Shown: one piece after another, positions 6,580 through 42,280 of the stretch | Layout of the letters: each line of letters opens with the position of its first letter | How positions within the stretch are numbered: position 1 is the first letter of the stretch | Source: Parvibacter caecicola | GTDB taxonomy: Bacteria > Actinomycetota > Coriobacteriia > Coriobacteriales > Eggerthellaceae | DNA length: 64,000 nucleotides | Direction of reading: 5' to 3' | Assembly: GCF_003725335.1 (NCBI RefSeq) | Contig: NZ_QIBY01000007.1 | Span: forward strand, 50,719 to 114,718 | Program-made: the position numbers and the translations under genes | Notes under the pieces: generated by a model | The model's database searches: none | What the model was told of the DNA's origin: nothing | Seen by the model: the letters and a program-made list of their open reading frames with translations, nothing else

Positions 6580-6626
6580 TTGGCCTCAATCCTAGCATTA
6601 CCGGGTTGTGCCTCGGTGCCGGCTCA

Positions 6627-23654: not shown

Positions 23655-24878
23655 TTACGAAAGGGGCAACAAGTATACGTTCTCTCCATCCGTAGCGAGC
23701 TGGTGCGAGTGATTGTGCAGGTCGTTCACCGCCTCCAAACTTTGTTTGAACGGAAGGATATCGGGGGCTTTCGCGCGCTGTAGCTTCTCCATGAGGGCAC
23801 GCGTTTGATCCTCGTTGAAATTGCCGACCCCCTTGCCCGCTTCCTCAAGGGCCCCATCAACGGGAGTCAGGTCGCCCAGGGGCGTCTGCTTGATAAGGGC
23901 TCCTAGTCCAGCGAATGCCGCAGACACGCCCCCAAGCACCACCGCATCGGCCGAGGCCTTCGAGCTCTCCTCGGTGGCGTTGTAACACTCGGTGTACAGC
24001 TTGCGATACTCGTTTCCATGGTCACTAATTTTTGTCGCTACTGCATTCAGATTTGCCTCGTCGAAGTTCTCGCTCAGCATAGGCTCCAGGAAAGCTGCGA
24101 ACGAATACGTATAGGTTGCCAGCTGATACTCTTTCAGTCGATCAAGCACCTCATCGAGTCGACCGCCTACGGCCAGGCGCAATTCTACAGGGCCTTTCTC
24201 GTTCACTTTGGCTCTTATCTGCGCGCGGAGATGGATGATGGCCTGCTCGGATTCCTGCTTGATATCAACAACTTTCATATGGGCATTCTGGCGCCAGATA
24301 TCGTTGTTCCAGTTATAGCGATACGCCTCAAGCACGTCTTCGAGCGTCTTCACGTTACCCCGCAGCTCAGCCTTATCTTTCTGGCGCATGTACTCGAACA
24401 TCTCGTTGACGGTATCCTGGATGGCATCAAGCTTCTGGTTGATCTGTGCAAGCGCAGCCGCCATGAAGAGCATCGTCGGGTCATAGGGCATCGTGGCAAC
24501 GGATTGGATAGAACCCGAATCGATTGTCTGAAAACGAGCCTGCTGCAACCCCAAGTCTGGTTCGTTGTAAGAACCAATTAGCCTACCGACACTTTTATTG
24601 AGACGCGATATGTCGAGAAGATTTCCGGCCTTATCTGTGGCCTGCAACAAAGTAGGCATATTGATCGTCGTCGTAACAGATCGAAACATTGCCGGAAGCG
24701 AACCGAGCCCAACACCCAAAGCCGCCATCTGGCCCAACGGGAGCTTGAAAGCATCAGCAACATCAACCTCAATATCCGTCGCAGCTAGATGGATGTCGGC
24801 AATCGACAGCCGCCTTCGAATCTGATCGGCATCCGCAATGGCTCCCTCCAGATTAGTATCACAATCGGTCATTTTCAC
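23655..24878 (-). CDS. Hypothetical protein
   Basis: 407-aa ORF, lower GC than the core, divergent from the SNF2 operon. No recognised motif. Confidence 0.45.
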   Translation of the reverse strand: MKMTDCDTNLEGAIADADQIRRRLSIADIHLAATDIEVDVADAFKLPLGQMAALGVGLGSLPAMFRSVTTTINMPTLLQATDKAGNLLDISRLNKSVGRLIGSYNEPDLGLQQARFQTIDSGSIQSVATMPYDPTMLFMAAALAQINQKLDAIQDTVNEMFEYMRQKDKAELRGNVKTLEDVLEAYRYNWNNDIWRQNAHMKVVDIKQESEQAIIHLRAQIRAKVNEKGPVELRLAVGGRLDEVLDRLKEYQLATYTYSFAAFLEPMLSENFDEANLNAVATKISDHGNEYRKLYTECYNATEESSKASADAVVLGGVSAAFAGLGALIKQTPLGDLTPVDGALEEAGKGVGNFNEDQTRALMEKLQRAKAPDILPFKQSLEAVNDLHNHSHQLATDGENVYLLPLS

Positions 24879-25157
24879 CTCTCGCGCCTCGGAGTTACCA
24901 CGTCTTCAGCGGCATCATACCCATTTGCTCTTTGGCCGTCATCCTTGACAACTCAAGTCCAAAATGGCGCAATTCGGAAGCAGGGTCCCAACAGATTGCA
25001 GAAACTGCTTTTCCGTGACAAGCGAACCATCACTGCCAGCCGCCCGAGGAGACATTCTTGTTGTGCGCTTAGAAAGCGCGAAGGACGAACCGATGCTTCT
25101 TTAGGTAAAATTGCAACAAACTTAGAGAATGTCATACTCTCTATCTAGCGAGGGCAG

Positions 25158-28100
25158 ATGGAACCGAAGTTTTTCGACAACAAGCTCAGCATAGTCAAAG
25201 ACGACCTCGTCCAGACGATCGAGGGCGGAGACTCGCTCGCAGTAGCGGCCGCCACCTTCTCGATGTACGCCTACCAGGAGCTCAAAGAGCAGCTCGACGG
25301 GCTGGACGATTTCAGGTTCATATTCACCTCGCAGGCGTTCACCCAGAGCAAGGCACCGAAGGAGAAGCGGGAGTTCTACATCCCGAGACTCAACCGCGAG
25401 CAGAGCCTTTTCGGCACCGACCTTGAGATACGCCTCAGAAACGAGCTCACGCAGAAGGCGATCGCCCAGGAGTGCGCCAACTGGATCCGCGCGAAGGCCA
25501 CCTTCAAGTCATTCGACGGCGAGGAGGGCATGGGAATCACAGCACTGACCGTGAGCAAGGACGACGACACCGTCGCGTACATGCCCTTCAACGCGTTCAC
25601 CACCTCCGAGCTCGGAACCGAGCGCAGCCATTCGAGCTACGGCGTCATAACCCGCCAGGAGCCTGCGACGTCCAGGATGCTGCTTGAGACGCTCGACAAG
25701 GCATGGGACGACCCTGCGCTTGTGGATGTGACGGAGGCCGTCATCGACAGCATCCAAACGATGTACCAGGAGAACGCGCCTGAGCTCATCTACTACATGG
25801 CGCTCTACCGCATCTTCAACGAGTTCCTAGGCGACATATCCGAGGACGTGCTCCCTGACGATCGCGTTGGATTCCGCGAGAGCCTCATCTGGAACAAGCT
25901 CTACGACTTCCAAGGCGACGCCGCTCTCGCGATCATCAACAAGCTGGAGACCTATCAGGGCTGCATCCTGGCCGACAGCGTCGGCCTCGGCAAGACGTTC
26001 ACGGCGCTCGCCGTGATCAAGTACTACGAGAGCCGGAACAGAAACGTGCTTGTGCTCTGCCCGAAGAAGCTCAAGGACAACTGGCTCACCTACAGAAGCA
26101 ACCTCGTGAACAACCCAATAGCCGGGGATCAGCTCCGCTACGACGTGCTCTATCACACGGATCTCTCGCGCACGAGAGGGACATCCGAGACCGGACTTCC
26201 CATCGGTCAGATCAACTGGGGCAACTACGACCTCGTCGTCATAGACGAGTCGCACAACTTCCGAAACGGAGGGGATTCCGCCTCCAAGAGCGAGGACAAG
26301 GAGAATCGCTATCAGAAGCTCATGGAGCGCGTCATCAAGCAAGGCGTGAAGACTAAGGTGCTCATGCTCTCGGCCACCCCCGTGAACAACCGCTTCCGCG
26401 ACCTACGCAACCAGCTCGCGCTCGCCTATGCGGGCGACGAGAGCACGTGGGAGGGAAAGCTCCGCATCAACGGTAGCATCGAGGACGTCTTCGCGAACGC
26501 TCAGCGCGCCTTCACCCAATGGACGAAGCTGCCGCCGGACCTGCGTACCACAGACGCTCTCACCCACATGCTCGACTTCGACTTCTTCGAGGTGCTGGAC
26601 CAGGTGACCGTGGCGCGCAGCCGAAAGCATATCCAGCGCTACTACGACATGGCGGCCATCGGCCCCTTCCCCAGGCGCAACAAGCCGATATCCAAGCGTC
26701 CGAGCCTCTCAACCGAGAGCGGCACCATCAACTACCGCGAGATCTACGACCAGCTGGAGAGCCTGCTGCTATCCGTCTACGTGCCCTCGCAGTACCTGCA
26801 TCCGAGCAAGGTATCCAAGTATGCCGACGGTGAGACGAACCTGACAATGGCAGGGCGCGAGATCGGCGTGCGAAAGCTCATGACCGCGAACCTCCTGAAG
26901 CGCCTGGAGAGCAGCGTCCACTCGTTCAAGCTCACGTTGGAGCGCGTCCGCAAGAACATGCAGGACACGCTGTCCCGCATCGACGACTACAAGCTCCAGA
27001 AGGCCGAGGGCTTCAAGGTCTCGGACATGGAGGGCTTCGATGCCTTCGACTTCGACATCGACGATGATGAGGAGATGTCCTTCGAGGTGGGCAACGCCAC
27101 CAAGTTCGACCTCGCCGACATGGACTGGCTCTCCTGGGAGCGCGACATCGTGTCGGACGTCGAGAACATCGACATCCTGCTGTCCATGATCGAGGACATC
27201 GGGCCAGAGCGCGATGCCAAGCTCGTCGAGCTAAAGGAGCAGATAAGGCAGAAGGCGGAGAACCCCATCAACCCAGGGAACAAGAAGATCATCATCTTCA
27301 CCGCCTTCGCCGACACCGCAGAGTACCTCTTCGAGCACGTGTCCAAGTTCGCCAAGGACGGGCTCGGCATCGAGACCGCCATGGTAACGGGAAGCGGCAG
27401 CGGCAGGAGCACGGTCGAGAAGCTTCCCTCAGACATGACGACGCTACTCGCGTGCTTCAGCCCGGTGTCGAAGGAGCGCGAGGCAACCGCGCCGGATTAC
27501 GAGGGTGCCGATATAGACATCCTCATAGCCACGGACTGCATCTCCGAGGGCCAGAACCTGCAAGATTGCGACTACCTCATAAATTACGACATCCACTGGA
27601 ACCCGGTGCGCATCGTCCAGCGATTCGGGCGCATCGACCGCATCGGCTCCACCAATGACGTGATTCAGCTCGTGAACTACTGGCCGGATGTGGAGCTCGA
27701 CGAGTACATACAGCTGAAGGAGCGCGTAGAGGAGCGCATGCGCATAACCGTGCTCACTTCCACAGGCGACGACGACTACATCAACGAGGAGGAGAAGGGC
27801 GACCTTGAGTACCGCGAGCGCCAGCTCCGCCAGATGCAAGAGGAGGTCGTGGACCTTGAGGACGTGACGGGCGGCGTGTCCATCACGGACCTCGGCCTCA
27901 ACGACTTCCGAATGGACCTCGTCGGCTACTACAAGGACAACCCCGACATCGACCGCCTCCCGAGCGGACTGCACGGCGTCGTCAAGGGCGTTGAGCCAGG
28001 CATAATCTTCGTGCTTCGCAACGTGAACCAGGATGTGAACATCCTGGGGCGTAACCAGCTCCATCCGTTCTATCTCGTCAACATCGGAGCTGATGGTTCG

Positions 28101-28397
28101 GTCATCGAGGGGCACCTCTCCCCGAAGGACGTGCTCGACACCATGCGGCTGCTCTGTCGAGGCAAGGACGTACCTGATGACGCGCTCTGCAGGGCGTTCA
28201 ACAAGAAGACGAAAAACGGCAAGGACATGAGATGGGCATCCAGGCTGCTTGTTGACGCGATAGCCTCCATCGTTGAATCGAAGGCCCAAGGCGATGTTGA
28301 CAGTTTCTTCTCCTCGGGTGTCTCCACCTTCTTGGAGAATGACATCAACGGATTGGACGACTTCGAGCTCATCTGCTTTTTGGTGGTGAACGAATGA
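25158..28397 (+). CDS. SNF2-family helicase
   Basis: 1079 aa. Walker A ADSVGLGKT, DESH box VVIDESHNFRN, and a C-terminal helicase domain (QRFGRIDRIGS). Confidence 0.85.
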   Translation: MEPKFFDNKLSIVKDDLVQTIEGGDSLAVAAATFSMYAYQELKEQLDGLDDFRFIFTSQAFTQSKAPKEKREFYIPRLNREQSLFGTDLEIRLRNELTQKAIAQECANWIRAKATFKSFDGEEGMGITALTVSKDDDTVAYMPFNAFTTSELGTERSHSSYGVITRQEPATSRMLLETLDKAWDDPALVDVTEAVIDSIQTMYQENAPELIYYMALYRIFNEFLGDISEDVLPDDRVGFRESLIWNKLYDFQGDAALAIINKLETYQGCILADSVGLGKTFTALAVIKYYESRNRNVLVLCPKKLKDNWLTYRSNLVNNPIAGDQLRYDVLYHTDLSRTRGTSETGLPIGQINWGNYDLVVIDESHNFRNGGDSASKSEDKENRYQKLMERVIKQGVKTKVLMLSATPVNNRFRDLRNQLALAYAGDESTWEGKLRINGSIEDVFANAQRAFTQWTKLPPDLRTTDALTHMLDFDFFEVLDQVTVARSRKHIQRYYDMAAIGPFPRRNKPISKRPSLSTESGTINYREIYDQLESLLLSVYVPSQYLHPSKVSKYADGETNLTMAGREIGVRKLMTANLLKRLESSVHSFKLTLERVRKNMQDTLSRIDDYKLQKAEGFKVSDMEGFDAFDFDIDDDEEMSFEVGNATKFDLADMDWLSWERDIVSDVENIDILLSMIEDIGPERDAKLVELKEQIRQKAENPINPGNKKIIIFTAFADTAEYLFEHVSKFAKDGLGIETAMVTGSGSGRSTVEKLPSDMTTLLACFSPVSKEREATAPDYEGADIDILIATDCISEGQNLQDCDYLINYDIHWNPVRIVQRFGRIDRIGSTNDVIQLVNYWPDVELDEYIQLKERVEERMRITVLTSTGDDDYINEEEKGDLEYRERQLRQMQEEVVDLEDVTGGVSITDLGLNDFRMDLVGYYKDNPDIDRLPSGLHGVVKGVEPGIIFVLRNVNQDVNILGRNQLHPFYLVNIGADGSVIEGHLSPKDVLDTMRLLCRGKDVPDDALCRAFNKKTKNGKDMRWASRLLVDAIASIVESKAQGDVDSFFSSGVSTFLENDINGLDDFELICFLVVNE

Positions 28398-29023
28398 TCC
28401 AACTCCCTTCCACCACGCGTGTCGACAGGAGGCTCCCGAAGGAGGATTTCTATCGTAGGCTGAAGCTTACCGGCAAGCAGCGCGACGCCTTCGTCAACCA
28501 GATCGAGAGCATAACCATCGCAAACTCCGTGAAGCCCTCGACCATGCGAGTGTCCGACGGTGCGGAGACTCACGAGATCTTCGTAATCGACCTTGCGCTC
28601 AAGGAGTCGTGCGTCCCAGCCTTGGTCATCGAGACGATCGCAAAGGCGAACCCCCACAAGATCCTTTTCAGGAGCGAGTTCGGAAACGAGGAAGTTTTGT
28701 CGGTCTACCGACAAGGCAAGGAATGGCACACCGACTGGGTTCCGACCGAACTCGAAAGTATCTCGATTCGAGAAGACAACCTCGATGCAATCTGGGACGG
28801 GATATGTGCCGAGGTCATCTTCGGAAACCCCGCCATAAAGGACGTCGACGGAGAGCTGAAGAAGCGCCAGAAGCTCAAGAGCCTGGACGAGGAGATAGCG
28901 AAGCTGGAGCGCGCCCATGGCAAAGAGAGGCAGCTGGGAAAGCGAAACGAGCTGTTCAGAAAATTGCAGGAAGCACGAAGCGAGCGAGAAGCCGTGCTGA
29001 AAGGATGGACATGGAAAAGATAG
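28394..29023 (+). CDS. DUF4391-like protein
   Basis: 209 aa. N-terminus reads RVDRRLPKEDFYRRLKL, with a basic coiled-coil C-terminus. Its start overlaps the SNF2 stop (ATGA). Confidence 0.55.
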   Translation: MIQLPSTTRVDRRLPKEDFYRRLKLTGKQRDAFVNQIESITIANSVKPSTMRVSDGAETHEIFVIDLALKESCVPALVIETIAKANPHKILFRSEFGNEEVLSVYRQGKEWHTDWVPTELESISIREDNLDAIWDGICAEVIFGNPAIKDVDGELKKRQKLKSLDEEIAKLERAHGKERQLGKRNELFRKLQEARSEREAVLKGWTWKR

Positions 29024-31002
29024 ACACCAGGACACCGGATCTTACCGAAGAGAACATCAAGAAGCTCATCGAACTCTTCCCGCAAGTCGCCACAGAGGTT
29101 GAAGGAGATGAGGGGCAGATCGAGAGAGCGGTCGACTTCGACGCACTGCGTGATCTACTGGGGGACGTCGCCGAGGGTCAGCGCGAGCGCTACCAGTTCA
29201 CCTGGCCGGGCAAGCGTGAGGCGAAAGCAGAGGCACGCCGTCCGATTGACAAGACGATGATTCCCTGTCCTGAGAAAAGCGTCGATTGGGATACGACCGA
29301 GAACCTCTACATCGAGGGCGATAATCTCGATGCGTTAAAGCTTCTCAAAGAGACCTATGCAGGCAAGATCAAGTTCATATACATCGATCCACCTTACAAC
29401 ACGGGGAATGACTTTATCTATGATGACGATTTCACGATTTCAAAAGAGAATTATGAAGGCGGCGAAGTTTCTGTGGAAGGACGCCTTGTGGCGAACCCAG
29501 ACAGCAATGGCCGTTTTCACTCCGATTGGTGCTCAATGATATACCCGAGACTACTGATTTCTAGGGACCTTTTGACCTCAGACGGCCTTATCATTGTCAG
29601 CATTGACGACAATGAAATGCACAACTTGAGAAAGATGTGTTCAGAGATCTATGGTGACGACAATTTTATTGCCGAATTGGTATGGGAGAAAAAGAAAAAA
29701 GGGTCATTTCTTGCAAAATCAATTACAACTATCAAAGAATACCTGCTGGTATATGCGAAAAACCGATCTTCTTCGGTAAGCCTAATTAGCGACATTAATA
29801 CTGATACCGAAACCTATCCATGCGTAAATGCTCCAAATCCCAGGGAAATAAGGCGGATTCCAGCTGGAATCGAGAGCAAGTACAAGGAAAAGAACTTTTT
29901 CTTGTCCGAAGGATCCGAAATATCAGACACGACGATGAGTTTGGTTCTCCATTCAGATTTAGTAATCAACGATGGGGTCCTAGCTGAGGATTTGGTTATC
30001 GAAGGAAATTGGAGATACTCTCAAGAAATGATGACCCAGTTCGCGTTGAATAAGGAACTGTATTTGACCAGGGACCTGTATCTCCGCCGTATTGTAAACG
30101 ACGCTCGGTTAAAACCGCTGAAAGACATTCTCCCCAGAGTTGGCGAACAAGAAGCAGGAGCCCGAGGTGGCAGTATCGACCTAGATAAGTTGTCTAATTC
30201 AGGCTGGGGTTCTAACGAAGATGCAGACGAAGAGCTCCGACTACTCTTTGGCGTCCAGAGGCTTCTGGACTATCCAAAACCCGTTCGCTTGATTTTGAAG
30301 CTCCTCGCTTCAATTAGGGATCAAGATTGCACAGTCTTGGACTTCTTCTCCGGCTCAGCAACGACAGCAGAGGCCGTTATGCGTCTTAACTATTTAGATG
30401 GTGGCAATAGGAAGTTCATATTGGTGCAACTTCCCGAAGAAACAAAGACAGATTCTGTTGCAAACAAAGCAGGCTACACCACGATCGTGGAAATCGGCGA
30501 AGAGCGTATTCGTCGGGCAGGAGCGAAGATTGTTGAGGAGAGTGACGAAAAACACTCGCAGTTGGAGCTGGGCTCCGAACCTAAACCAGTCCCCGACATC
30601 GGTTTTCGTGTTCTCCGAATCGACTCGTCGAACTTCAAGGACACACATCTAACTCCAGGACAAGCCGACCAGGCATCCCTCCTTGACGCTATCGATAACG
30701 TGAAAAACGGTCGCACAGCTGAAGATATTCTGTTCCAGGTGCTACCTGCTTTCCGCATCCCGTATTCGGCGCATATCGAGAAACTCGACATCAATGGCAA
30801 AAAGGTCTTCGACGTCAATCATGGTCAGTTGCTCGCATGCTTCGATGCCGATGTGACCAACGACATCATTGAGGAGATTGCGCGGCGCAAACCTTCCTAT
30901 GCTGTGATGCGCGACCTGTCCTTTAAGGACGATTCGGCTGCAGCTAATTTCGAGGAGCTCTTCAAAACCTTCAGTCCCGACACCATCCGCCGGGTGATCT
31001 AG
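29005..31002 (+). CDS. mod: Site-specific DNA N6-adenine methyltransferase, Type III Mod-like
   Basis: FIYIDPPYNTGNDFIYDDDF (DPPY motif IV) and the AdoMet region are present. Overlaps the 3' end of the DUF4391 gene. Confidence 0.85.
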   Translation: MDMEKIDTRTPDLTEENIKKLIELFPQVATEVEGDEGQIERAVDFDALRDLLGDVAEGQRERYQFTWPGKREAKAEARRPIDKTMIPCPEKSVDWDTTENLYIEGDNLDALKLLKETYAGKIKFIYIDPPYNTGNDFIYDDDFTISKENYEGGEVSVEGRLVANPDSNGRFHSDWCSMIYPRLLISRDLLTSDGLIIVSIDDNEMHNLRKMCSEIYGDDNFIAELVWEKKKKGSFLAKSITTIKEYLLVYAKNRSSSVSLISDINTDTETYPCVNAPNPREIRRIPAGIESKYKEKNFFLSEGSEISDTTMSLVLHSDLVINDGVLAEDLVIEGNWRYSQEMMTQFALNKELYLTRDLYLRRIVNDARLKPLKDILPRVGEQEAGARGGSIDLDKLSNSGWGSNEDADEELRLLFGVQRLLDYPKPVRLILKLLASIRDQDCTVLDFFSGSATTAEAVMRLNYLDGGNRKFILVQLPEETKTDSVANKAGYTTIVEIGEERIRRAGAKIVEESDEKHSQLELGSEPKPVPDIGFRVLRIDSSNFKDTHLTPGQADQASLLDAIDNVKNGRTAEDILFQVLPAFRIPYSAHIEKLDINGKKVFDVNHGQLLACFDADVTNDIIEEIARRKPSYAVMRDLSFKDDSAAANFEELFKTFSPDTIRRVI

Positions 31003-34000
31003 ATGCAGTTCAAGTTCAAGATACAGCCATACCAAACGGCTGCAGCAGACGCGGTGACCGCTGTGTTCGAGGGTCAGCGAAGAGTTGAGCTGCTGTCGTA
31101 TATGCGCGACATCGGCAAAGTCAGACTTAAGGAATCGCTCCGGCAGAAGAGCGCCGGTCAATTTAGCCTTGGTGCGGAATTGTCGGAGTCCATGGGCTAC
31201 GGCAACGCGCCGCTCTCCATCAATGCGCAGGAGCTTCTGCGCAATATCAACCGTGTGCAATCACGAAACCAGCTGGAAGAGTCGTTGGAGCTGTCCTGCG
31301 ACATCGGAGCCTGCCAGCTGGATGTGGAGATGGAAACTGGTACCGGTAAGACCTATGTCTACACCAAGACCATGTTCGAGCTCAACCGCCTCTACGGATG
31401 GACGAAGTTCATCATCGTGGTACCTTCCATCGCCATCCGCGAGGGCGTAAACAAGAGCCTCCAGAGCACCGAGCAGCACTTCTTCGAGCAATACGAGCGC
31501 TCGATCCGCTACTTCATCTACGACTCCGACAGGTTGAACGAGTTGGATGCATACTCGCAGAGCGCTGACATCAACGTAATGATCATCAACATGCAGGCAT
31601 TCAACTCCTCCATGAAGGAGGGAGCCAACAATAAGGCGGCCCGCATCATCTTCGACGAGCGAGACGACTTCGGGAGCCGCCGCCCCATCGACGTCATAGC
31701 AGCCAACAACCCCATCGTCATCGTCGACGAGCCCCAGAAGATGGGCAAGAAGAACTCTGCCACCTGGAAGGGCATCGAGCGGTTCAATCCGCTGTTCGTG
31801 CTGAACTACTCGGCGACCCACCGTGAGAAGCACAACATGGTGTACGCGCTGGACGCCCTGGACGCATTTAACGAGAAGCTGGTCAAGCGCATTGAAGTGA
31901 AGGGCTTCGAGCTCAAGAACATGCGCGGCACCGACGGCTACCTCTATCTCAAGGACATCATCGTCTCCAAGAACAAGGCCCCTGTGGCCGTGGTCGAGTT
32001 CAAGGCAATGTCGGCCGGAGGCAAGGTGGTCAAGAAGACCATGCGCTTCAACGAAGGCGACAGCATCTACGACGCCACCGGGGACATCCGCCTTGAGGCC
32101 TACCGCGACTACGTGATCGCGTCGGGCAACGACGGCATCGTGCCCGATCAGGACGGTCGCATCGGCTACGTACGGTTCCTCAACGGCGAGGTGCTCCAAC
32201 GAGGCGTGGTTTACGGCGACTCGGCCGAGGACGACATGCGCCGCGTGCAGATCCGAGAGACCATCGCCTCCCACCTACAGAAGGAGGAGGCTCTCTTCTA
32301 CCGAGGCATCAAGTGCCTATCGCTCTTCTTCATAGACGAGGTGGCAAAGTACAGGGACATCTCCGGCAACGGGGAGACCGTGGGCTACGGCAAGGTTTTC
32401 GAGGAGGAGTACGAGCGCGCCGTCGAGGAGCGCCTCTCCAACCCGACCCTAGACGACGAGCGCGAGCGAGCCTACCTCGACTACCTGAGGCGCGATACGG
32501 CGCATGCCGTACACTCCGGCTACTTCAGCATCGACAAGAAGGGCAATGCGATCGAGAGCTCCGAGAAGAAGGCCGAGCAGACAGACGGTTTGGGCGCGAA
32601 TGACGAGAACGCCCAGCGCGCCTACGATCTGATCCTGAAGGACAAGGAGCGACTGCTCTCCTTTGAGGAGCCTGTGCGGTTCATCTTCAGTCACTCTGCC
32701 CTTCGCGAAGGATGGGACAACCCGAACATCTTCCAGATCTGCACGCTCAAGAGCTCCGGTTCCGAGACCGGCAAGCGCCAGGAGGTGGGACGAGGACTGC
32801 GCCTCTGCGTGGACCAGAAGGGCGAGCGTCAGGACGCAATGTATCTGGGCACCCGCGACGTGCACAATGTGAACGTGCTCACCGTAGTGGCTTCCGAGAG
32901 CTACTCGTCGTTCGTGGACGCCCTGCAGAAGGACATCAAGGCGGAGCTTCGCGACCGCCCGACCGTCGTAGAGATGGACTTCTTCGCAGGACGCCAGGTC
33001 ACACTTCCCAACACTGGCGAGACCGTGACGTTCAGTGAGCGCGAGTCCAAGGAGCTCTACAAGTGCCTCATCAAGGGCGACTTCCTCGACGACAACGACC
33101 GCCCGTCGTGTAAGTTCCGCGAGGGAGGCTTCTTCGAGTATGCCATCGTGAATCTGCCCGAGGACATGCGCGAGGAGCCGAAGCTCCAAGCCGCCGAGCT
33201 GCTCGTAAGGAGCGCCTACGATCCGAGCGCGCTCTCCGCCATGATCACCGACGGCAATGTACCCAAGATCACGAGAAACGCGCTCAACGACAACTACTAC
33301 AGGCGCGAGTTCCAGGAGCTCTGGAAGAGGATAAACAAGAAACACGCCTACACGGTGTCGTTCGACGACGAGGAACTAATCCGAAAGGCTGTGACTGCAA
33401 TCGATGCGAACCTTCAGGTGAGCGAGCTGTCCTACACGATCACTACGGGAACTCAAAAAGAAACTGCGAAGCGCGAGGACATAGAGGACAGGACTCACTT
33501 CAAGACCAAGAGCGCGGAAAGCAGGGCACTTGAGCTTGACGAACGCATTGACGTCACCTATGACCTAGTCGGTGAGGTGGCTCAAGCGGCCAAGGTCACG
33601 CGACGCACAGCAGCGACTATCCTCTCGCGCATTAGCCCCTTAAAGTACTCTCTCTACAAGCGGAACCCTGAGGAGTTCATCAAGAAGGCCAGCTCCATCA
33701 TCGTGGACGAGAAGGCGACAACGGTCATCGACCATGTCTCTTACCACCAAATCGACGAGGAGTTCGACACCAACATCTTCACCGAGCGCATGCCTGAAAA
33801 CATTTCCAAGGCACTCAAGGCCCAGAAGAACATCCAGGATTACGTGTTCTTCGACAGCCAGAAGGAAAAGGAGTTCGCTGAAGCGATGGATGTAGCCACC
33901 GAAGTCTGTGTCTATGCCAAGATGCCGCGTACATTCACGATACCGACACCTGTTGGCGAGTACGCACCCGACTGGGCGATTGCCTTCAACGAGGGTGCTG

Positions 34001-34185
34001 TCCGGCACATCTACTTCATTGCGGAGACCAAGGGCACCATGGATTCGATGGAATTGAGCACGGTGGAGCAGACGAAGATCGCGTGCGCTAAGAAGGTTTT
34101 CAACGAGCTATCGACCTCGCAAGTTCGATACCACGAAGTATCTACCTATGATGAGCTGCTCACAGTAATCCAAGGAGTGGAGTAG
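31003..34185 (+). CDS. res: Type III restriction Res-like subunit (DEAD/DEAH helicase plus C-terminal PD-(D/E)xK nuclease)
   Basis: Walker A METGTGKT, IVIVDEPQ, and C-terminal PDWAIAF...IYFIAETKG. Its ATG immediately follows the mod stop. Confidence 0.85.
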   Translation: MQFKFKIQPYQTAAADAVTAVFEGQRRVELLSYMRDIGKVRLKESLRQKSAGQFSLGAELSESMGYGNAPLSINAQELLRNINRVQSRNQLEESLELSCDIGACQLDVEMETGTGKTYVYTKTMFELNRLYGWTKFIIVVPSIAIREGVNKSLQSTEQHFFEQYERSIRYFIYDSDRLNELDAYSQSADINVMIINMQAFNSSMKEGANNKAARIIFDERDDFGSRRPIDVIAANNPIVIVDEPQKMGKKNSATWKGIERFNPLFVLNYSATHREKHNMVYALDALDAFNEKLVKRIEVKGFELKNMRGTDGYLYLKDIIVSKNKAPVAVVEFKAMSAGGKVVKKTMRFNEGDSIYDATGDIRLEAYRDYVIASGNDGIVPDQDGRIGYVRFLNGEVLQRGVVYGDSAEDDMRRVQIRETIASHLQKEEALFYRGIKCLSLFFIDEVAKYRDISGNGETVGYGKVFEEEYERAVEERLSNPTLDDERERAYLDYLRRDTAHAVHSGYFSIDKKGNAIESSEKKAEQTDGLGANDENAQRAYDLILKDKERLLSFEEPVRFIFSHSALREGWDNPNIFQICTLKSSGSETGKRQEVGRGLRLCVDQKGERQDAMYLGTRDVHNVNVLTVVASESYSSFVDALQKDIKAELRDRPTVVEMDFFAGRQVTLPNTGETVTFSERESKELYKCLIKGDFLDDNDRPSCKFREGGFFEYAIVNLPEDMREEPKLQAAELLVRSAYDPSALSAMITDGNVPKITRNALNDNYYRREFQELWKRINKKHAYTVSFDDEELIRKAVTAIDANLQVSELSYTITTGTQKETAKREDIEDRTHFKTKSAESRALELDERIDVTYDLVGEVAQAAKVTRRTAATILSRISPLKYSLYKRNPEEFIKKASSIIVDEKATTVIDHVSYHQIDEEFDTNIFTERMPENISKALKAQKNIQDYVFFDSQKEKEFAEAMDVATEVCVYAKMPRTFTIPTPVGEYAPDWAIAFNEGAVRHIYFIAETKGTMDSMELSTVEQTKIACAKKVFNELSTSQVRYHEVSTYDELLTVIQGVE

Positions 34186-34186
34186 C

Positions 34187-35419
34187 GTGGAGTGCTTCAA
34201 CGGAAACAGCTCGTACAGTATCTTCGAGAACCTAAAAGCACGCCTTAAGGAAGATATATCTGAGTTAAAAGCTGAAGAGTTGGATAGCACTGACAGGGAT
34301 GCCTGGGTGGACTATTGGGAAAACGAATACTATTGCCCTCCTGTTGAGCTTTATCCCGACAACGCTGAGCTTGGCCTGACCCAACAATCGGTTCAGCAAT
34401 ACAATAGCTGGCATCATGCTGCATGGGACGAGCCCGAATACTTTGAAGTTGAAGGCGCTAGGGCAACCTGCAAGGTCCCATATTCCGGGACCCCGTGGTT
34501 CTTTAAGATGCAGCCGTCAACCTTCACGCTTTCAGGCCATTATGCCGAGAAGGTCACCGATCCAGGATCAGATGGTTTTGGTTACATTACCTTTGCCCTA
34601 GAAACCCCACTCGGTAGCGCCACGCCCGAGGGAATACGAAAGTTCTTTTCGGATCAAATAGAAGACTTCTCCGAGCAAATTGAGTGCTGCAACAAGGACG
34701 CGGAAAGCTACAACAATTCTCTTAGGCAAATCATCGAAGCAGCTTTAGACAAAAGGATTGAGCAACTTGATAAGTTCGCTTCCCTTCGACGAGGACTGAA
34801 TCTTCCCTTAAATCGCGTAAAAGATGCTCCTTTGGCCATGCCTCTTCACTTACAAAAGAAGACCCTGAAAGTTTCAAGGCCTGAAAAGATCCCAAGCGCC
34901 GAGCAATCCTACTCTATTGATGACGCAACATACAAACACATAACAGATGTAATAGAAAGCTCCGGAGCCATGATGGAGAGAGCTCCCGAGGCTTACAACG
35001 GCATGGAAGAAGAGCATCTAAGGGATGTGCTATTGAGCGCCCTGAATACTCATTACCAAGACCAAGTGAACGGCGAGGCTTTTCGCAGACATGGAAAGAC
35101 GGACATTCAGATTCCCGTCAACAATCATGCTGCGTACATCGCGGAATGCAAGCTGTGGAAGGGGCCAAAGGCTTTCAAGGACGCGCTCGCACAACTGTTC
35201 TCATATACGACGTGGCGCGACACCAAGGTATCCGTAATCGTATTCAATAAGAAGAACAAAAACTACGAGAAAGTGCTCGACGCAATTGACGAAGTTTTGG
35301 AGGGAGAATCGATTACTTGCGATCGACACAAGCACTCTCAGTGGCTTTGCAAAATACAGAACGAAGAAGATGAAAGGATTATGCACGTAACGGTCCAGGT
35401 TTTCGATTTGTCCTTATAG
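34187..35419 (+). CDS. Hypothetical protein with C-terminal PD-(D/E)xK-like motif
   Basis: GTG start 1 nt after the res stop. TDIQIP...IAECKLWKG fits D...ExK. No other recognised domain. Confidence 0.5.
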   Translation: MECFNGNSSYSIFENLKARLKEDISELKAEELDSTDRDAWVDYWENEYYCPPVELYPDNAELGLTQQSVQQYNSWHHAAWDEPEYFEVEGARATCKVPYSGTPWFFKMQPSTFTLSGHYAEKVTDPGSDGFGYITFALETPLGSATPEGIRKFFSDQIEDFSEQIECCNKDAESYNNSLRQIIEAALDKRIEQLDKFASLRRGLNLPLNRVKDAPLAMPLHLQKKTLKVSRPEKIPSAEQSYSIDDATYKHITDVIESSGAMMERAPEAYNGMEEEHLRDVLLSALNTHYQDQVNGEAFRRHGKTDIQIPVNNHAAYIAECKLWKGPKAFKDALAQLFSYTTWRDTKVSVIVFNKKNKNYEKVLDAIDEVLEGESITCDRHKHSQWLCKIQNEEDERIMHVTVQVFDLSL

Positions 35420-35572: not shown

Positions 35573-37120
35573 CTAAACTGAGGCCAGCATGTCTTTTCGG
35601 ATAAAACTTATGCCCGCCCGCTTCATTGATCTCCATTGGCCCGATAGGCTTCCTTGTTTCAAAGCTTCATAGCAGAATAGCCAGTAACGATCCATGTCTG
35701 TATTTTTCAGCCTCAGAGCGACTTTATTAAGTGGCTTCACCTGCGTTGCATCTCTTTTCCAGTGATTTTGTTTCATGAAATAAATCCATGTCATGGTCAG
35801 AAGCAGACAATCTTTGCTTTTAATTACGTACTTCTGCGCCTCACAATAATCGCTTTCGAATCCATCGAGTACAAAGCCGAACCTAACGGCAAAATAAATC
35901 GCATAGCACAAGCTTTCGTAGTCGTTTAGCCTGATTGCTTCTTGATATATCGTATCCGAAAATTTTTTGATGTCGCCTATGTCTACTCCATATGGGATAA
36001 AAATATATTCTTCCATTAATTGCAGAAGATATGGGTAGAGGACCGCCATATGCATGAATCGCTTTGCTGCCAGCCTTTTCCCATTATTGGAAAGATCTAA
36101 TCCTTTCAACTTCTTAATGGCGTAATTAATTATTGCGAAGTCATCCAATTCCATTGCCAGCTTTAACGCTGTATCAATGAACGTGTTGACTTGCGGGTAT
36201 TCAACCATACCTGACTCACCCACTTTGGGCAAATCGCTCAATTGGTGCTTCCAGTCTTTCTCTGCGCCAATAGGAAGCTCGATGATCCGTGTCTTCTTGT
36301 GATTCAGAAGCAAATCGAATTCGCGAAGCGCCTCTTCGAGGTTTTTGAGGAACCGCTGCCCTTCATCAAAACTAGATACGTAACAACTATAATCATCTAC
36401 ATTCCTAACATAGCGATAACCATTATCGTAGAGCTCCTTGTCTATGGTCGTCAAAATTATCTCTGAAATTAGGTTTGACGCATGGGGCCCAATGAGAAGC
36501 CCATGTGTTTCACCATTACGCATATCTGAACATGCCTTATCAATCCTGTTGTACCAAATATCATCGTGAATTGTTCTTTTCGCTACTTCTTTTCCGACCA
36601 AGGCCCATGGTATCGAATGTGTATAAATACTGGGGAAACACGTGGAGATATCAGCTTTAACAAGGAAACGGCTCACCCCGTTATCGTGCATCAACAAATC
36701 TGATTCCGGATCTCCATCTACTCGCCAGTTCTTGTAAGTCATCTCGAAAATCCGTTTTTCATTGCGCTTTTTACGGATATGGATTCGACTAACACAATAA
36801 CTTTGTCCATCTGTCTGTGCGCGAAAATGAGCGCGTATCTCATCCCAGTCATTTGCAAGTTCACGACATACTCTTTGGTACTTGAAAGGATTAGGGATGC
36901 CCATAAGGCGCGGCACACCGATATTACGCATTGCCCGAAAAGTTATATATTCATTCCAGGTTGCTTCAAATGAATTAGATGCCGTTTTGCAGTAATCGAA
37001 GAAAGGAACAGCAGTAAACACCGGAGGAAGCTTTTCAGGAAAAAACCCATACGCAAGAAAACCCTCATACAGTTCGTCAGAGGATATTTCATCCAAAAAA
37101 TCTATATAACACCTATCCAC
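35573..37120 (-). CDS. Reverse transcriptase, defence/Abi-type, with about 200-aa C-terminal extension
   Basis: RT motifs 2 (KADISTCFPSIYTHSIPWAL), 4 (GLLIGPHASNLISEIIL), 5 (YVRNVDDYSCYV) and 6 (LLLNHKKTRII). AT-rich gene. Confidence 0.8.
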   Translation of the reverse strand: MDRCYIDFLDEISSDELYEGFLAYGFFPEKLPPVFTAVPFFDYCKTASNSFEATWNEYITFRAMRNIGVPRLMGIPNPFKYQRVCRELANDWDEIRAHFRAQTDGQSYCVSRIHIRKKRNEKRIFEMTYKNWRVDGDPESDLLMHDNGVSRFLVKADISTCFPSIYTHSIPWALVGKEVAKRTIHDDIWYNRIDKACSDMRNGETHGLLIGPHASNLISEIILTTIDKELYDNGYRYVRNVDDYSCYVSSFDEGQRFLKNLEEALREFDLLLNHKKTRIIELPIGAEKDWKHQLSDLPKVGESGMVEYPQVNTFIDTALKLAMELDDFAIINYAIKKLKGLDLSNNGKRLAAKRFMHMAVLYPYLLQLMEEYIFIPYGVDIGDIKKFSDTIYQEAIRLNDYESLCYAIYFAVRFGFVLDGFESDYCEAQKYVIKSKDCLLLTMTWIYFMKQNHWKRDATQVKPLNKVALRLKNTDMDRYWLFCYEALKQGSLSGQWRSMKRAGISFIRKDMLASV

Positions 37121-38253: not shown

Positions 38254-38553
38254 ATGTTGGAGATTCTGCAGACAGATGAATTCATCAAATGGATGAAGCG
38301 GCTTCGAAATGCCGATGCTAGAGCGCGCATCAACGTGCGAATCCGCAGGATCTCGCTCACGGGGAACTTCGGCGATACGAAGCCCGTCGGTGACGGAGTC
38401 TACGAGCTGCGCATCGACTACGGACCCGGGTACCGCGTGTACTACTCCCAACACAGAAGCGAGGTTGTCCTGCTGCTCATCGGCGGGGACAAGTCCTCGC
38501 AGCAGAAGGACATCGACAAGGCCAAAAGACTCAATGCGGAATACGAAGGATAG
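38254..38553 (+). CDS. Type II toxin, RelE/ParE superfamily (HigB-like addiction-module killer protein)
   Basis: MLEILQTDEFIKWMKRL...GVYELRIDYGPGYRVYY...LLLIGGDKSSQQKDI, typical of the addiction-module killer family. Confidence 0.72.
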   Translation: MLEILQTDEFIKWMKRLRNADARARINVRIRRISLTGNFGDTKPVGDGVYELRIDYGPGYRVYYSQHRSEVVLLLIGGDKSSQQKDIDKAKRLNAEYEG

Positions 38554-38562
38554 AGGACGATC

Positions 38563-38844
38563 ATGAAGACGGCTACGAAATGGGATGCCTCCGAATACTT
38601 GGAGACCGAAGAGGACATGGCGGCCTACTTGAACGCCGCGCTCGAGGATGGCGACACCTCCGTGGTTGCCGCCGCCCTCGGCGATATCGCACGAGCAAAG
38701 GGAATGACCCAACTCTCCAAGGAGACCGGTATCACCAGAGACGGGCTCTACAAGGCATTGTCTCCTACAGGGAACCCGTCGTTTGATACGGTGCAAAAAG
38801 TCGTTAAAGCGTTTGGGCTTAAGCTTGATGTTGCTACTGCGTGA
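38563..38844 (+). CDS. HigA-family antitoxin (HTH addiction-module antidote protein)
   Basis: 93 aa reading ...AAALGDIARAKGMTQLSKETGITRDGLYKAL. It lies 9 nt after the toxin stop. Confidence 0.72.
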   Translation: MKTATKWDASEYLETEEDMAAYLNAALEDGDTSVVAAALGDIARAKGMTQLSKETGITRDGLYKALSPTGNPSFDTVQKVVKAFGLKLDVATA

Positions 38845-38938: not shown

Positions 38939-41900
38939 ATGGAAGTAGCCTCGACGCTTGTCTCACTTGCCAGCAAATTAGGCCTGTCAAGCTTATTGGA
39001 TAAAGTCAAAAAATGTAAAAAGAACAGGAAGCTACATCAGATTCGAGAAGATTATCTAACTAGGTCTACATTTGTATCATTCCAACAAGCGCCTCTTTCA
39101 GATTTATTTCAAAATAATGCTTTGTGCGAAGAGCTAATTGCCCATTGTCGCAAAGGCGACTTAGCAAAATCCGCAGTAGTTAATACTTTTCTTTACTCTT
39201 CAAAAGAGGCCCCCTCCGAAGGGCGCTTCTTTGATGCGGAAAAGCTTGTAGGTAATTTTTTTGATGAAGTGGCTGCCGTAATATTCCAGCCAATTGACAA
39301 AAAAGACGAACCCCTTTCTGCAGCGATACAAGAAGGCATCGCCGAAACCAGAGAACTTCAGTCTGACGTTCAGCAGAGCTATAAACAAATGGAAGCGAAG
39401 GTTGATGCTCTAACGGCATCTTTGACAGAGCAACTTGGCTTCTCTTCGCTGACGTTACTCATAAATGCAGTAGAAGACGGGTCGGTTTTGTTTGCCGATT
39501 TCGAATCTGCAGTTGAGACCGATAAAAGTAATAGTGTTTCAGGCAAATATCTTTCTGTATACCTCTCTCTATGTAAAGGTGAAAACCCATGCTTTGATAT
39601 ATCGGACTTCAAGGTCATTGGAACTCCTCTTGCTTCCTCACTGGCTTCGTTGGCAATTTCGACAGGGCAATTGAACACCGCCGTCTGCGTTCTTGGCCTC
39701 TATGACGAAGGAGCCAATTGCGCTAAGGCTGTTGGGGAGATTATTAATAATCCAAATATCGATGAAGAAACGAATCGATATGAGATTGCCGCAGATTCCC
39801 CTTTCTCGCCTTTTGCATGCGTTTTGAATGCCGAGCTCGCATTCATGAACAAAGCCTACGTAATTGCAGACGATCAATTCGCATTGTGCGAAGGGCGACT
39901 TAATCCAGTAGCAAAATGTCATAGTGACATTTCACGCATATGCAAAGCAATGCAGTATTCATTGACTTCTATTTCTCCTGATGACGTAAGGAACTTTGCC
40001 GGGGATTTCCCACTGTGGGGTAGCACATCGCTAAAACATGAATATGGAGAAATCCTTGAAGTTGCTCTTGATCTGATTGGCGAAACAAGTGCAGCGGAAA
40101 TCATTTCGTCTCTTCCTGAGGAAGCGCTGCAACACTTGCCAAACGCACAGCTTCAAGCAGAGATAAGCACGTGCGACGATATCGATAGATTGAGACACTT
40201 ATGCGAAAAGTCGTTGATAAAGCAGCTTTTCCCTGCATTCTTTACATGCGCAGAAGAACTTATATCCAAAGATCCCTCTTGCACGTTGTGGTTAAAACAA
40301 CTGGTAGAGAAGGAGGCTGAGAATGTTTTGGTCAGCAACTTTCTTTTCTTCCTCTTCTATGTCGATAAATTGAATCCATGCGTCTCTTATGAAGAGTACA
40401 AGTACCATGAAAGCTGTTACAGAAATGACCCTCGATTTCATCTGCATGCATACAGGCTGTTTAAGAGCAGCAACCCCGAAGAGGCCTGCAGCCATATCGA
40501 AATGGCACTAAGTCTAATGGCCGCAGGGCAGACATTACCGTGCCCAGACTATTCGAGAGAATGGGTTTGCTATCTTCATGAAAACGAACGTGACTTTCAG
40601 GTGATCGACCTAGTCAGACGATTCGCACCCGTAATTCCCGCAAGGGCTTTCAAGTCAATCGCATTTGCTATAGAAGAACCGTTAGATAAATCGGTTCTCG
40701 CAAGAGAGCTCTTCGAGTTGCTGGAGCAATCGGAGAACGATGATCCGGAGCTGACATGCTTGCTTGCGCAGTATCATGGATTTGTTGCAAATGATCAGCT
40801 TAAAGCGCTCAAGTTCGCAAAGCTATCCTTCAAAAAGCGCCCCTCTCTCGACGCAGCACGGTCCCTGGTTTATGCATCACTTGGCTTATCGTTAGGCATC
40901 CCCGAAGAAGTTGAGCAGTATGCTCTCAATCAAAAGAGCACAGAGCTCGACATGCTCATCGCCGAGCATTACCGGAGAGAGAAAAAGGACTCAAAAGCAG
41001 ATTATCTTTTAAAGCGAGCTATTTTTGATAATAGACCAGACTCCCACCGCGCAATTGCCGCATACGGCTGCAGCCATTTGAGCGATGCCGAGAAAGAGAA
41101 ACCAACTAAGATTGACCACAATACCTGCGCATGCTTGGAAAACAAGGAATCGGGACAGCTGGTCGTAGCTTTTCACTCGGAATCTGATTTGATTCCGAGT
41201 GAAGGAGTTAATGCTCTCGGGATGCAGAACTACACAACAGCATCTCCCCAATATCTTGCAATGCGAGATCATGCCGTTGGAGATCGCGTGCAACTTGGCT
41301 CAGAGTACTGGGAAGTTGTAGACGTAAACAACGTAGATGACGTCATCGGAAAAAAGACCATGGAGATAATCGCAGAAGACCCCTCAACGGTGGTCTTCTC
41401 TTCCCCTGATGGAGACATCGAAGATGTGATTCGGCAAATCTCTGAATACATGGAAGAGCACAAACAGCAGAGCAACGTTTATTCTGACGGCATTCGAGTT
41501 AACGATGGCACAGTTGTTTTTCTGGGGATCGAGACAGGGTGTGCGCTCTACCCCATCAAGCCATTTGAGTTTATCCTAAATGTGCTCAAAGGGGATGATG
41601 TCCCATTTCGGAGAATAGAAATAGGCTTTTCTTCTCCCATGACAGGGGAAGAGACGTTTCTTCTCTCTTATAATGCCATCGTTCTTCTGGCTGCTCTTGA
41701 AGAGCTAGGCGTCGACTGTGACCCAATCATGAGTCGTTGCAGCATTACCACATCAACGAAAAAACGTCTGCAGCTAGACATTCAAGATTATTCTGATTCG
41801 TTATACGGCGCTGGGAAAATGGTTTCAGTCGATGGACGCGCCACTCTATTGCAGTATGACGCTGCAGCCAAGCAAGAACTGAGCGCAATTTGCGCAAATA

Positions 41901-42280
41901 CATTAGGCTTTCTTAACAAATTGAGACAAGTTGAACTTGCTCAGATCGATAAGCTTCCTTCAAGTTTCCCGTTTCTTGACCAGAATACGCTAGGCGACAT
42001 GGAAACGGCAAGACAAGGTGGGATGTTTTATGTGACAGAAGACTGTTTTCAGGCGCTTTTCTCTGATATTTCCGAATCCGCCCCTCAGAGATGCAGTCTG
42101 TACAGTCTTCTTATTGCACTCGGAATGAGGGAAGCCGCCCTGTTTGCACTTCCGAAAGCAATGCACCAGTGGGGAGCCGATCCGTATGTTGATGTCAATG
42201 TTGCTAACGTGGTAATTCAGATTCTTGAGTCGTTTACGCAAGGCGCCGGAAGCCCCATACCAAATGAACAAGATACGTAA
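38939..42280 (+). CDS. Large hypothetical protein (1113 aa), AT-rich, predicted alpha-helical
   Basis: Long uninterrupted ORF at about 42% GC in a high-GC genome. No Walker A motif and no recognisable catalytic motif. Confidence 0.5.
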   Translation: MEVASTLVSLASKLGLSSLLDKVKKCKKNRKLHQIREDYLTRSTFVSFQQAPLSDLFQNNALCEELIAHCRKGDLAKSAVVNTFLYSSKEAPSEGRFFDAEKLVGNFFDEVAAVIFQPIDKKDEPLSAAIQEGIAETRELQSDVQQSYKQMEAKVDALTASLTEQLGFSSLTLLINAVEDGSVLFADFESAVETDKSNSVSGKYLSVYLSLCKGENPCFDISDFKVIGTPLASSLASLAISTGQLNTAVCVLGLYDEGANCAKAVGEIINNPNIDEETNRYEIAADSPFSPFACVLNAELAFMNKAYVIADDQFALCEGRLNPVAKCHSDISRICKAMQYSLTSISPDDVRNFAGDFPLWGSTSLKHEYGEILEVALDLIGETSAAEIISSLPEEALQHLPNAQLQAEISTCDDIDRLRHLCEKSLIKQLFPAFFTCAEELISKDPSCTLWLKQLVEKEAENVLVSNFLFFLFYVDKLNPCVSYEEYKYHESCYRNDPRFHLHAYRLFKSSNPEEACSHIEMALSLMAAGQTLPCPDYSREWVCYLHENERDFQVIDLVRRFAPVIPARAFKSIAFAIEEPLDKSVLARELFELLEQSENDDPELTCLLAQYHGFVANDQLKALKFAKLSFKKRPSLDAARSLVYASLGLSLGIPEEVEQYALNQKSTELDMLIAEHYRREKKDSKADYLLKRAIFDNRPDSHRAIAAYGCSHLSDAEKEKPTKIDHNTCACLENKESGQLVVAFHSESDLIPSEGVNALGMQNYTTASPQYLAMRDHAVGDRVQLGSEYWEVVDVNNVDDVIGKKTMEIIAEDPSTVVFSSPDGDIEDVIRQISEYMEEHKQQSNVYSDGIRVNDGTVVFLGIETGCALYPIKPFEFILNVLKGDDVPFRRIEIGFSSPMTGEETFLLSYNAIVLLAALEELGVDCDPIMSRCSITTSTKKRLQLDIQDYSDSLYGAGKMVSVDGRATLLQYDAAAKQELSAICANTLGFLNKLRQVELAQIDKLPSSFPFLDQNTLGDMETARQGGMFYVTEDCFQALFSDISESAPQRCSLYSLLIALGMREAALFALPKAMHQWGADPYVDVNVANVVIQILESFTQGAGSPIPNEQDT

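Follow-up and report, generated by a model that had tools for sequence, protein, structure and literature searches.

A recurrent SNF2-DUF4391-Mod-Res gene cassette with a Type III restriction-modification core in Parvibacter caecicola and across three phyla

We analyzed a 64,000-nucleotide stretch of the Parvibacter caecicola genome (contig NZ_QIBY01000007.1, positions 50,719 to 114,718 of the forward strand; hereafter the window), which contains an operon of five genes, here termed g1 to g5. Sequence comparison indicates that the first four, encoding a SNF2 helicase, a DUF4391 protein and the Mod and Res subunits of a Type III restriction-modification (R-M) system, constitute a conserved unit in that order. 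This four-gene cassette is widespread, clearly delimited, and without a name or experimental study in the libraries and searchable literature that we checked. On balance, we favor its interpretation as a defense cassette in which a Type III R-M core is joined by a dependent, accessory SNF2-DUF4391 motor module. The features of the operon on which this interpretation is based are as follows.

24879-25157, plus strand: intergenic region upstream of the operon, presumed location of the promoter
25158-28397, plus strand: g1, SNF2 helicase, 1079 amino acids
25158-25727, plus strand: phospholipase D (PLD)-superfamily fold domain of g1, approximately residues 1-190, from a structure model
28394-29023, plus strand: g2, DUF4391 protein, 209 amino acids
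29011-31002, plus strand: g3, Type III Mod, conserved start ATG at 29011, as in the public gene call
29560-30590, plus strand: variable central region of Mod, presumed target-recognition domain, defined by a gap in blastn homology
31003-34185, plus strand: g4, Type III Res, 1060 amino acids
34187-35419, plus strand: g5, PDC-S54 family protein, 410 amino acids, abutting Res

Recurrence, boundaries and junctions of the cassette

The order SNF2, DUF4391, Mod, Res is kept across Actinomycetota, Pseudomonadota and Bacillota. To quantify the linkage, we used a metagenome scan seeded on DUF4391, in which loci were found by short peptide patterns and the best 80 were kept; each count takes as its denominator the loci with enough flanking DNA. 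A g1-type SNF2 gene lay directly upstream of DUF4391 in 79 of 79 loci, while Mod and Res lay downstream of it in 47 of 48 and 35 of 35, respectively. The reverse test was seeded on Res in 80 viral or prophage contigs, and counted the 61 in which 7.5 kb or more precedes Res. SNF2 and DUF4391 were present in 52 of these 61 loci (~85%) and absent from nine; some of the nine are truncated, and at least three are clean Mod-Res pairs. Mod-Res also stands alone on a Lactococcus plasmid, between insertion sequence (IS) elements. Linkage that is near-absolute from the SNF2-DUF4391 side but ~85% from the side of Res suggests that the pair depends on Mod-Res, and not the reverse.

The preliminary description of this locus, made from the DNA letters alone, suggested that the gene set recurs in other genomes, and for the first four genes this proved correct. 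The four-gene order occurs on plasmids of Mycolicibacterium, Acinetobacter, Citrobacter, E. coli and Photobacterium, as well as in Rhodococcus, Listeria, Phaeobacter, Enterobacter, an Erysipelothrix phage and other genomes. The cassette is overwhelmingly found on mobile DNA, namely plasmids, phage-plasmids, prophage-like contigs and integrase-bearing islands. On E. coli contigs it adjoins genes whose Pfam domains are those of an iron-siderophore (Fec-type) transport operon, and this version is rare, being found in 10 of 5426 complete E. coli genomes by a DNA search at high identity. A profile scan of genome contigs with our first DUF4391 alignment gave a single 2.5-kb locus, and because DUF4391 diverges quickly, a tblastn search of plasmids with this protein found only 21 records, missing the Listeria, Phaeobacter and Enterobacter cassettes that were found by searching with Res. 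The "hypothetical protein" of the Listeria cassette was confirmed as DUF4391. In the Erysipelothrix phage phi1605 (L191, MF172979.1), the gene in the DUF4391 position (6457-7170) is labeled "methyl-accepting chemotaxis protein (cheM)", which, judged by position, is probably a misannotation.

Comparison with close relatives defines the limits of the unit. In the metagenome loci closest to the window (L002-L008), SNF2, DUF4391, Mod and Res follow one another in unchanged order, and DNA homology with close relatives begins at 25156-25158, at the start of g1, and ends at the Res stop codon. Between phyla, g1 is the best-conserved protein of the set, with 50-52% identity versus 42-46% for Res, ~39% for Mod and 21-27% for DUF4391. 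The last evolves fastest among the core genes, showing 20-27% identity in distant loci.

All five ORFs (open reading frames) of the operon lie on the plus strand where the preliminary description placed them. Read from the sequence, the g1/g2 junction is an ATGA overlap (28394-28397), the Mod/Res junction a TAG directly followed by ATG (31002/31003), and the Res/g5 junction TAG-c-GTG, with a 1-nt gap (34185/34187). It had been stated that all five junctions are overlaps or gaps of at most 1 nt; the tightness is real, but five genes have four junctions. At the g2/g3 junction, a 19-nt overlap had been read from an ATG at 29005. This ATG exists, but the relatives and the public gene calls use 29011, from which the overlap is 13 nt. 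Relatives carry AAAGGATAG in place of the AAAGGATGG of the window, and in the alignment their Mod begins at the ATG that the window has at 29011. Relative to L005, L002, L003 and L007, positions 29006-29008 have changed from TAG to TGG, with loss of the ancestral DUF4391 stop codon and addition of the residues WTWKR. By this one change, DUF4391 gained five codons and the in-frame ATG at 29005 arose, which is therefore lineage-specific. Ancestrally, g2 and g3 were separated by a gap of 2-4 nt. We had considered an ancestral ATGA overlap (TGA stop) at this junction, and rejected it when the DNA alignment gave TAG to TGG. The same change is present in identical public assemblies, including GCA_014192485.1.

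In each of the 16 annotated loci that we tabulated, the SNF2 and DUF4391 genes either overlapped or lay no more than 6 nt apart, and the other junctions vary. Four tight junctions in a row, in an arrangement that recurs in more than 100 independent loci, are not a product of chance. No plus-strand terminator-like site was found within 25158-35419, and no plus-strand promoter-like match in 24879-25157. The latter interval lacks a regulator gene in the window; relatives carry WYL, BrxR_CTD or HTH_17 genes at the upstream position (L005/6, L015/16, L018/19, L021), or, in L009, a small helix-turn-helix gene for which no Pfam accession was listed.

Tight junctions had also been taken to imply that the genes form an obligate unit. 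This does not follow, since relatives tolerate inserted defense systems and Mod-Res-only versions exist. Known defense systems lie inside the cassette in eight loci (L039, L051, L074, L100, L030, L061, L094, L108). Between SNF2 and DUF4391 we found Shedu, once (L039). Between DUF4391 and Mod there are AbiLi/AbiLii, Thoeris ThsA/ThsB, a 5-kb block, and an OLD-type endonuclease with DUF2130 (in L108, where "ATP-dependent endonuclease" and DUF2130 are RefSeq product names). Between Mod and Res, the inserts are Shedu, RhuM/PDC-S05, an AlbA_2 protein and a second Mod. In a further locus (L021), a gene of the 23S_rRNA_IVP family (four-helix bundle) occupies 9673-10041 between DUF4391 and Mod, and a UvrD-type helicase, DarT and an ADP-ribosylglycohydrolase-domain gene lie downstream of Res.

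Proteins of the cassette

Profile searches with Pfam and PADLOC upheld the five family assignments of the preliminary description, that of g5 to the extent that a PDC-S54 match and a fitting residue signature support it. Mod (g3) matches N6_N4_Mtase (Pfam, 5.8e-25), of the beta-class N6-adenine type, and over its full length MTase_III (PADLOC, 4.1e-193); it carries the motifs DPPY and DFFSGSATT. Each of the 11 clade members that we checked has DPPY, and 10 of them have the S-adenosylmethionine-binding motif, L009 falling outside the search pattern. Res (g4) matches ResIII and RE_endonuc (Pfam, 6.6e-31) and REase_III (PADLOC, 4.4e-271), and is homologous to EcoP15I Res (PDB 4zcf_C, E 1.4e-70). 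Its superfamily 2 (SF2) ATPase motifs GTGKT, DEPQ, SAT and GRGLR and its C-terminal PD-(D/E)xK motif, PDW...ETK, are found clade-wide; against NCBIfam PRK15483 it scores 391.9 bits, under the cut-off of 564. Judged by their motifs, Mod and Res are a complete, intact Type III pair.

The target specificity of this pair may well have been replaced. The blastn homology of Mod to L002-L008 stops at ~29560-29672 and restarts at ~30333-30592, and Mod is 55-59% identical to its closest relatives where g1 and Res are 84-94% identical, a pattern that indicates exchange of the central region relative to those relatives. Phase variation of mod was considered and rejected, as the gene contains no phase-variable repeats. 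In one locus (L089), DUF4391, SNF2 and Res are 95%, 98% and 98% identical to a reference and Mod is 61% identical, indicating that DUF4391 tracks SNF2 and Res and does not co-vary with the swapped specificity region of Mod. Two loci contain two tandem Mod genes (L020, 9686-14292; L162, 6571-9992), with an extra 232-amino-acid ORF before Res in L020; these suggest dual specificity or Mod exchange in progress.

The SNF2 protein g1 matches SNF2-rel_dom and Helicase_C in Pfam and carries the motifs GLGKT, DESH, SATP and QRFGRIDR, which are conserved across the family; its top match among PDB sequences is RapA. Its N-terminal domain, the family of which comprises 2958 clusters in a profile search, gave no match by sequence search against Pfam or PDB sequences, and its fold was recognized by the structure route only. 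Structure comparison retrieved FAM83A (10.6), FAM83B (10.5), Zucchini (10.4) and R.NgoAVII (10.1), followed by SauUSI (9.8), Nuc (9.6) and BfiI (9.2). The preliminary description's statement that PLD is absent is therefore incorrect with respect to fold: the first ~190 residues of g1 adopt it in the model, though with no catalytic His. By model topology, the position of the HxK strand is occupied by A-T-F-K-S, and despite strong conservation of the domain, alignments of 13 and of 48 sequences contain no invariant His. The sole His of the domain in the window, H157, sits in a non-conserved, low-confidence loop. The model thus depicts a PLD fold that lacks the canonical catalytic His nucleophile. 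At the other end of g1, a well-conserved C-terminal domain of 220 residues (approximately 860-1079) matched nothing in Pfam or among PDB sequences.

The DUF4391 protein g2 matches the Pfam family of that name (PF14335) with 136.5 bits, against a gathering threshold of 29.9, and its residues 3-196 align to profile positions 2-230 of 232. A profile search found at least 2396 DUF4391 clusters at 90% identity. The predicted structure consists of an alpha/beta domain (residues 1-145) and a long helical hairpin (residues 151-202), at the tip of which E178-x-Q180 is invariant. The model is confident (predicted local distance difference test, pLDDT, 91), yet structure comparison gave no relative, and we found no nuclease signature in DUF4391.

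Possible roles of the SNF2-DUF4391 pair

In the interpretation that we favor, Mod would methylate adenine in a short asymmetric site and so mark host DNA as self, and Res, an SF2 switch that depends on ATP and carries a PD-(D/E)xK nuclease, would cleave unmodified DNA, both as in EcoP15I. The SNF2 protein, as a double-stranded DNA (dsDNA) translocase, would join DUF4391 in a complex, with DUF4391 serving as an adaptor or auto-inhibitory subunit by means of its helical hairpin. The pair would lend Mod-Res an ATP-driven motor or sensor activity on unmethylated DNA; it might, for example, drive or extend site-to-site communication, remove proteins bound to the DNA, or act against phage escape. 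The pair would bring no nuclease of its own: with g1 lacking the PLD catalytic His and DUF4391 lacking a nuclease signature, the pair has no evident effector.

A stronger form of this proposal, which we regard as possible but doubtful, holds that with the pair the Type III enzyme becomes a restriction system of a separate class, with four components and a mechanism of its own. Type III enzymes cleave in an ATP-dependent manner at two unmethylated, inversely oriented asymmetric sites, and Mod hemimethylates one strand. If the stronger form is true, a directional dsDNA motor would replace or supplement passive one-dimensional diffusion, so that DNA with same-orientation sites or a single site would no longer escape; alternatively, the motor would be a sensor that licenses Res on invading DNA only. 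Either way, DUF4391 would represent a new fold with the role of a coupling or auto-inhibitory subunit. Solving what the motor contributes would assign DUF4391 a function, and it bears on how helicases cooperate with methylation-based discrimination of self from non-self, also in DISARM, BREX and ARMADA-type systems.

Several considerations weigh against a cooperating four-gene machine. That the complex forms and that SNF2-DUF4391 and Mod-Res cooperate is proposed from synteny, and divergent architectures may have escaped sampling by short peptides and the best 80 loci. The persistence of Mod-Res-only relatives implies that the additional genes may be dispensable for restriction, and the presence of whole defense systems between cassette genes implies that translational coupling of the four is not essential. 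On the protein side, the g1 PLD domain was modeled with only moderate confidence (pLDDT 68) and may use a non-canonical catalytic mechanism; DUF4391 may likewise have an enzymatic role, since it has no recognizable fold relative.

Two other explanations address the same pair of genes. SNF2-DUF4391 could control or safeguard the R-M pair rather than attack invaders, by delaying or restraining Res during establishment in a new, unmethylated host, by stripping Mod-Res from host sites left unmodified by replication or DNA damage (restriction alleviation), or by guarding against anti-restriction proteins of phages. The cassette resides mostly on mobile DNA, where toxicity during establishment is a real problem, and DUF4391 evolves as fast as expected of an arms-race protein or a sensor. 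Moreover, SNF2 enzymes such as RapA, to which g1 is most similar among PDB sequences, take stalled proteins off DNA. However, a 1079-amino-acid motor that is better conserved than Res would be a costly regulator, and relatives already possess dedicated upstream regulators (WYL/BrxR-like, HTH_17), so we consider a safeguarding role unlikely.

Alternatively, SNF2-DUF4391 could be a self-sufficient two-gene defense system that acts independently of Mod and Res and merely neighbors one Type III clade, given that many defense genes cluster. This would accommodate the inserts tolerated between DUF4391 and Mod and the occurrence of Mod-Res without the pair, in the nine Res-seeded loci and on the Lactococcus plasmid; the closest PADLOC model to g1 is, in addition, a candidate described only as "HKD+Snf2". 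Set against this are the nearly invariable presence of Mod and Res downstream of the pair and the constancy of order and strand across three phyla, whereas the known hitchhikers at these loci differ from locus to locus. A pair whose PLD domain has lost its His and whose DUF4391 has no nuclease signature also has no evident means of attack. We judge independence of the pair to be quite improbable, and continue to favor an accessory motor module that depends on Mod-Res.

The fifth gene, its island and comparison with known systems

The preliminary description treated all five genes as one unit, which our survey does not support: a g5 homolog was missing from all 80 DUF4391 loci, and L003, in which it is 80% identical and arranged in the same way, is the only close relative to have one. 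The protein g5 gave no match in Pfam or among PDB sequences, but its residues 2-409 align to positions 6-407 of 410 of the PDC-S54 hidden Markov model (1.7e-116), a candidate single-gene defense family of PADLOC. Invariant among 41 family members are E264, E275, R279, E297, G-K-T-D306-I, E320, K322 and Q336, and the signature E275/E297...D306...E320-x-K322...Q336 fits the assignment to the PD-(D/E)xK group.

That five genes form one obligate system, with g5 as an extra effector, would agree with the 1-nt gap between Res and g5, with the Shine-Dalgarno-like AAGGAG located 9 nt upstream of the g5 GTG, with the lack of a terminator between them, and with the shared arrangement in L003. We nevertheless consider it very improbable. 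In addition to the absence of g5 from the DUF4391 loci, the other close relatives cease to be homologous at the DNA level after the Res stop codon, the slot after Res is elsewhere filled by GmrSD, Abi_C with GmrSD, an AAA ATPase or T5orf172, and g5 belongs to a large family (2911 clusters at 50% identity), with members that stand alone on unrelated plasmids of Nostoc and Thauera. In light of the inserts in relatives' cassettes, g5 is best read as another lodger, a separate hitchhiking defense candidate in the 3' slot and outside the conserved cassette. It is probably co-transcribed with the cassette in this genome. A weak sigma-70-like match, by consensus only, occurs near the end of Res upstream of g5 (TCGATA-16-TATGAT, 34125-34152, plus strand), from which g5 could be transcribed independently. 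Taken with the inserts, the cassette appears to behave as an insertion hotspot for defense genes, much as described for the Hma operon (see below). Such a recurrent docking site is a useful anchor for finding new defense genes, of which the PDC-S54-type gene is an example.

The window itself points to a similar setting. Between ~24 and 56 kb, its GC content drops from ~0.65 to 0.45-0.55 (range 0.42-0.59), and this low GC content, together with a DRT4 gene, an IS256-family transposase and an integrase, marks the region as a defense island. No tRNA gene was found in the window. The neighboring features are as follows.

23655-24878, minus strand: 407-amino-acid ORF, divergent and directly upstream of the operon, no Pfam or PADLOC match
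35573-37120, minus strand: DRT4 reverse transcriptase (PADLOC Drt4, 1.3e-202; Pfam RVT_1)
38939-42280, plus strand: 1113-amino-acid ORF, no Pfam or PADLOC match
42563-43723: IS256/Mutator-family transposase
45247-47370, minus strand: 707-amino-acid protein, partial match to PADLOC PDC-M49A (1.4e-32), weak matches to HEC-02A and mad8
48192-49364: tyrosine integrase

The DRT4 gene is convergent with g5, with ~150 nt between the two stop codons. Two small ORFs (38254-38553 and 38563-38844), called publicly as a Gp49-like / HI1420-HTH pair, precede the 1113-amino-acid ORF and look like a toxin-antitoxin pair; the large ORF may be an uncharacterized defense gene of the island. The 707-amino-acid protein is, on its profile matches, another candidate defense gene. 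The 407-amino-acid ORF is kept in three public assemblies with an identical locus.

The preliminary description had also held that no named system combines SNF2 with DUF4391, and PADLOC, NCBIfam, Pfam and the searchable literature agree. PADLOC (2023) has no DUF4391 model and would report the locus as a Type III R-M system, an "HKD+Snf2" candidate and PDC-S54. In NCBIfam (2026), no model passes its threshold for g1, g2 or g5, Pfam (2025) still lists DUF4391 as unknown, and the RefSeq gene names are generic. In the searchable literature, a scope that leaves subscription-only papers outside, DUF4391 appears only in an enrichment table and as an apparent typo, and neither PF14335 nor PDC-S54 is mentioned. 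Current defense-finding tools therefore see a plain Type III system plus unrelated candidates, and miss the four-gene unit.

Among known systems, class 1 DISARM (DrmA, DrmB/DUF1998, DrmC/PLD, DrmD/SNF2, DrmMI) is alike in being a methylation-based, multi-gene defense, and the shared types of parts are an adenine methyltransferase, two helicases, one of them of the SNF2 type, and an element with a PLD fold. A divergent DISARM system is nonetheless a negligible prospect, and we rejected membership: g1 does match DrmD models (PADLOC, 2.9e-35), but its 144.8 bits against NCBIfam NF038317 compare with a curated cut-off of 610, searches of the operon and the neighboring genes gave no DUF1998 (DrmB) and, for DrmA, only a weak helicase-region match on g1 (8.3e-22), the PLD fold here forms part of the SNF2 protein and has no catalytic His, and the remaining two parts are genuine Type III components, the helicase a Res that carries a nuclease and the methyltransferase a Mod. 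The earlier exclusion of DISARM hence stands, as does the absence of DUF1998 from the operon proteins and neighbors, but the absence of PLD that was cited with it does not.

Other SNF2-containing systems are more distant. Hma (HmaA, HmaB, HmaC) is a Snf2-based defense operon and an insertion hotspot for other defense genes (PMC11232893). Although g1 matches the PADLOC HmaA model (8.7e-24), HmaA has an active C-terminal PD-(D/E)xK nickase, whereas g1 lacks a domain of this kind and has other partners. Lactococcal AbiR (AbiRi-iii with the LlaKR2I methylase) provides a precedent for a Snf2 motor functionally tied to an R-M methylase: the N-terminal domain of its Snf2-type component is described as similar to an ATP-dependent restriction endonuclease, and the system needs the LlaKR2I R-M methylase, without which it is toxic (PMC13064643). 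The AbiR partners are sigma70-like and ParB-like rather than DUF4391, there is no Type III Res, and the likeness of AbiRiii to g1 is one of description. PLD-nuclease/helicase enzymes such as SauUSI (PDB 7clg) differ in that the g1 family lacks the conserved His and that g1 never occurs alone but is accompanied by DUF4391, Mod and Res. In the PADLOC "HKD+Snf2" model (C3a139), the HKD part (positions 1-161) fails to align to g1, and against the NCBIfam model "phospholipase D-like domain-containing anti-phage protein" g1 scores 119, with a cut-off of 1100.

The closest comparison is with the classical Type III systems EcoP15I, EcoP1I and StyLTI, which likewise have a beta-class m6A (N6-methyladenine) Mod directly upstream of an SF2-PD-(D/E)xK Res, and in which the Mod central region is likewise swapped between relatives. 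In the textbook view, Type III R-M is a two-gene system of mod and res. The locus studied here does not fit a definition limited to two genes, and Mod-Res-only variants are a minority. Its Res belongs to a distinct clade in which SNF2 and DUF4391 stand ahead of the pair in ~85% of sampled loci; a large Type III clade, against the two-gene picture, thus carries a SNF2 motor that is conserved, along with a protein whose fold has no recognizable relative.

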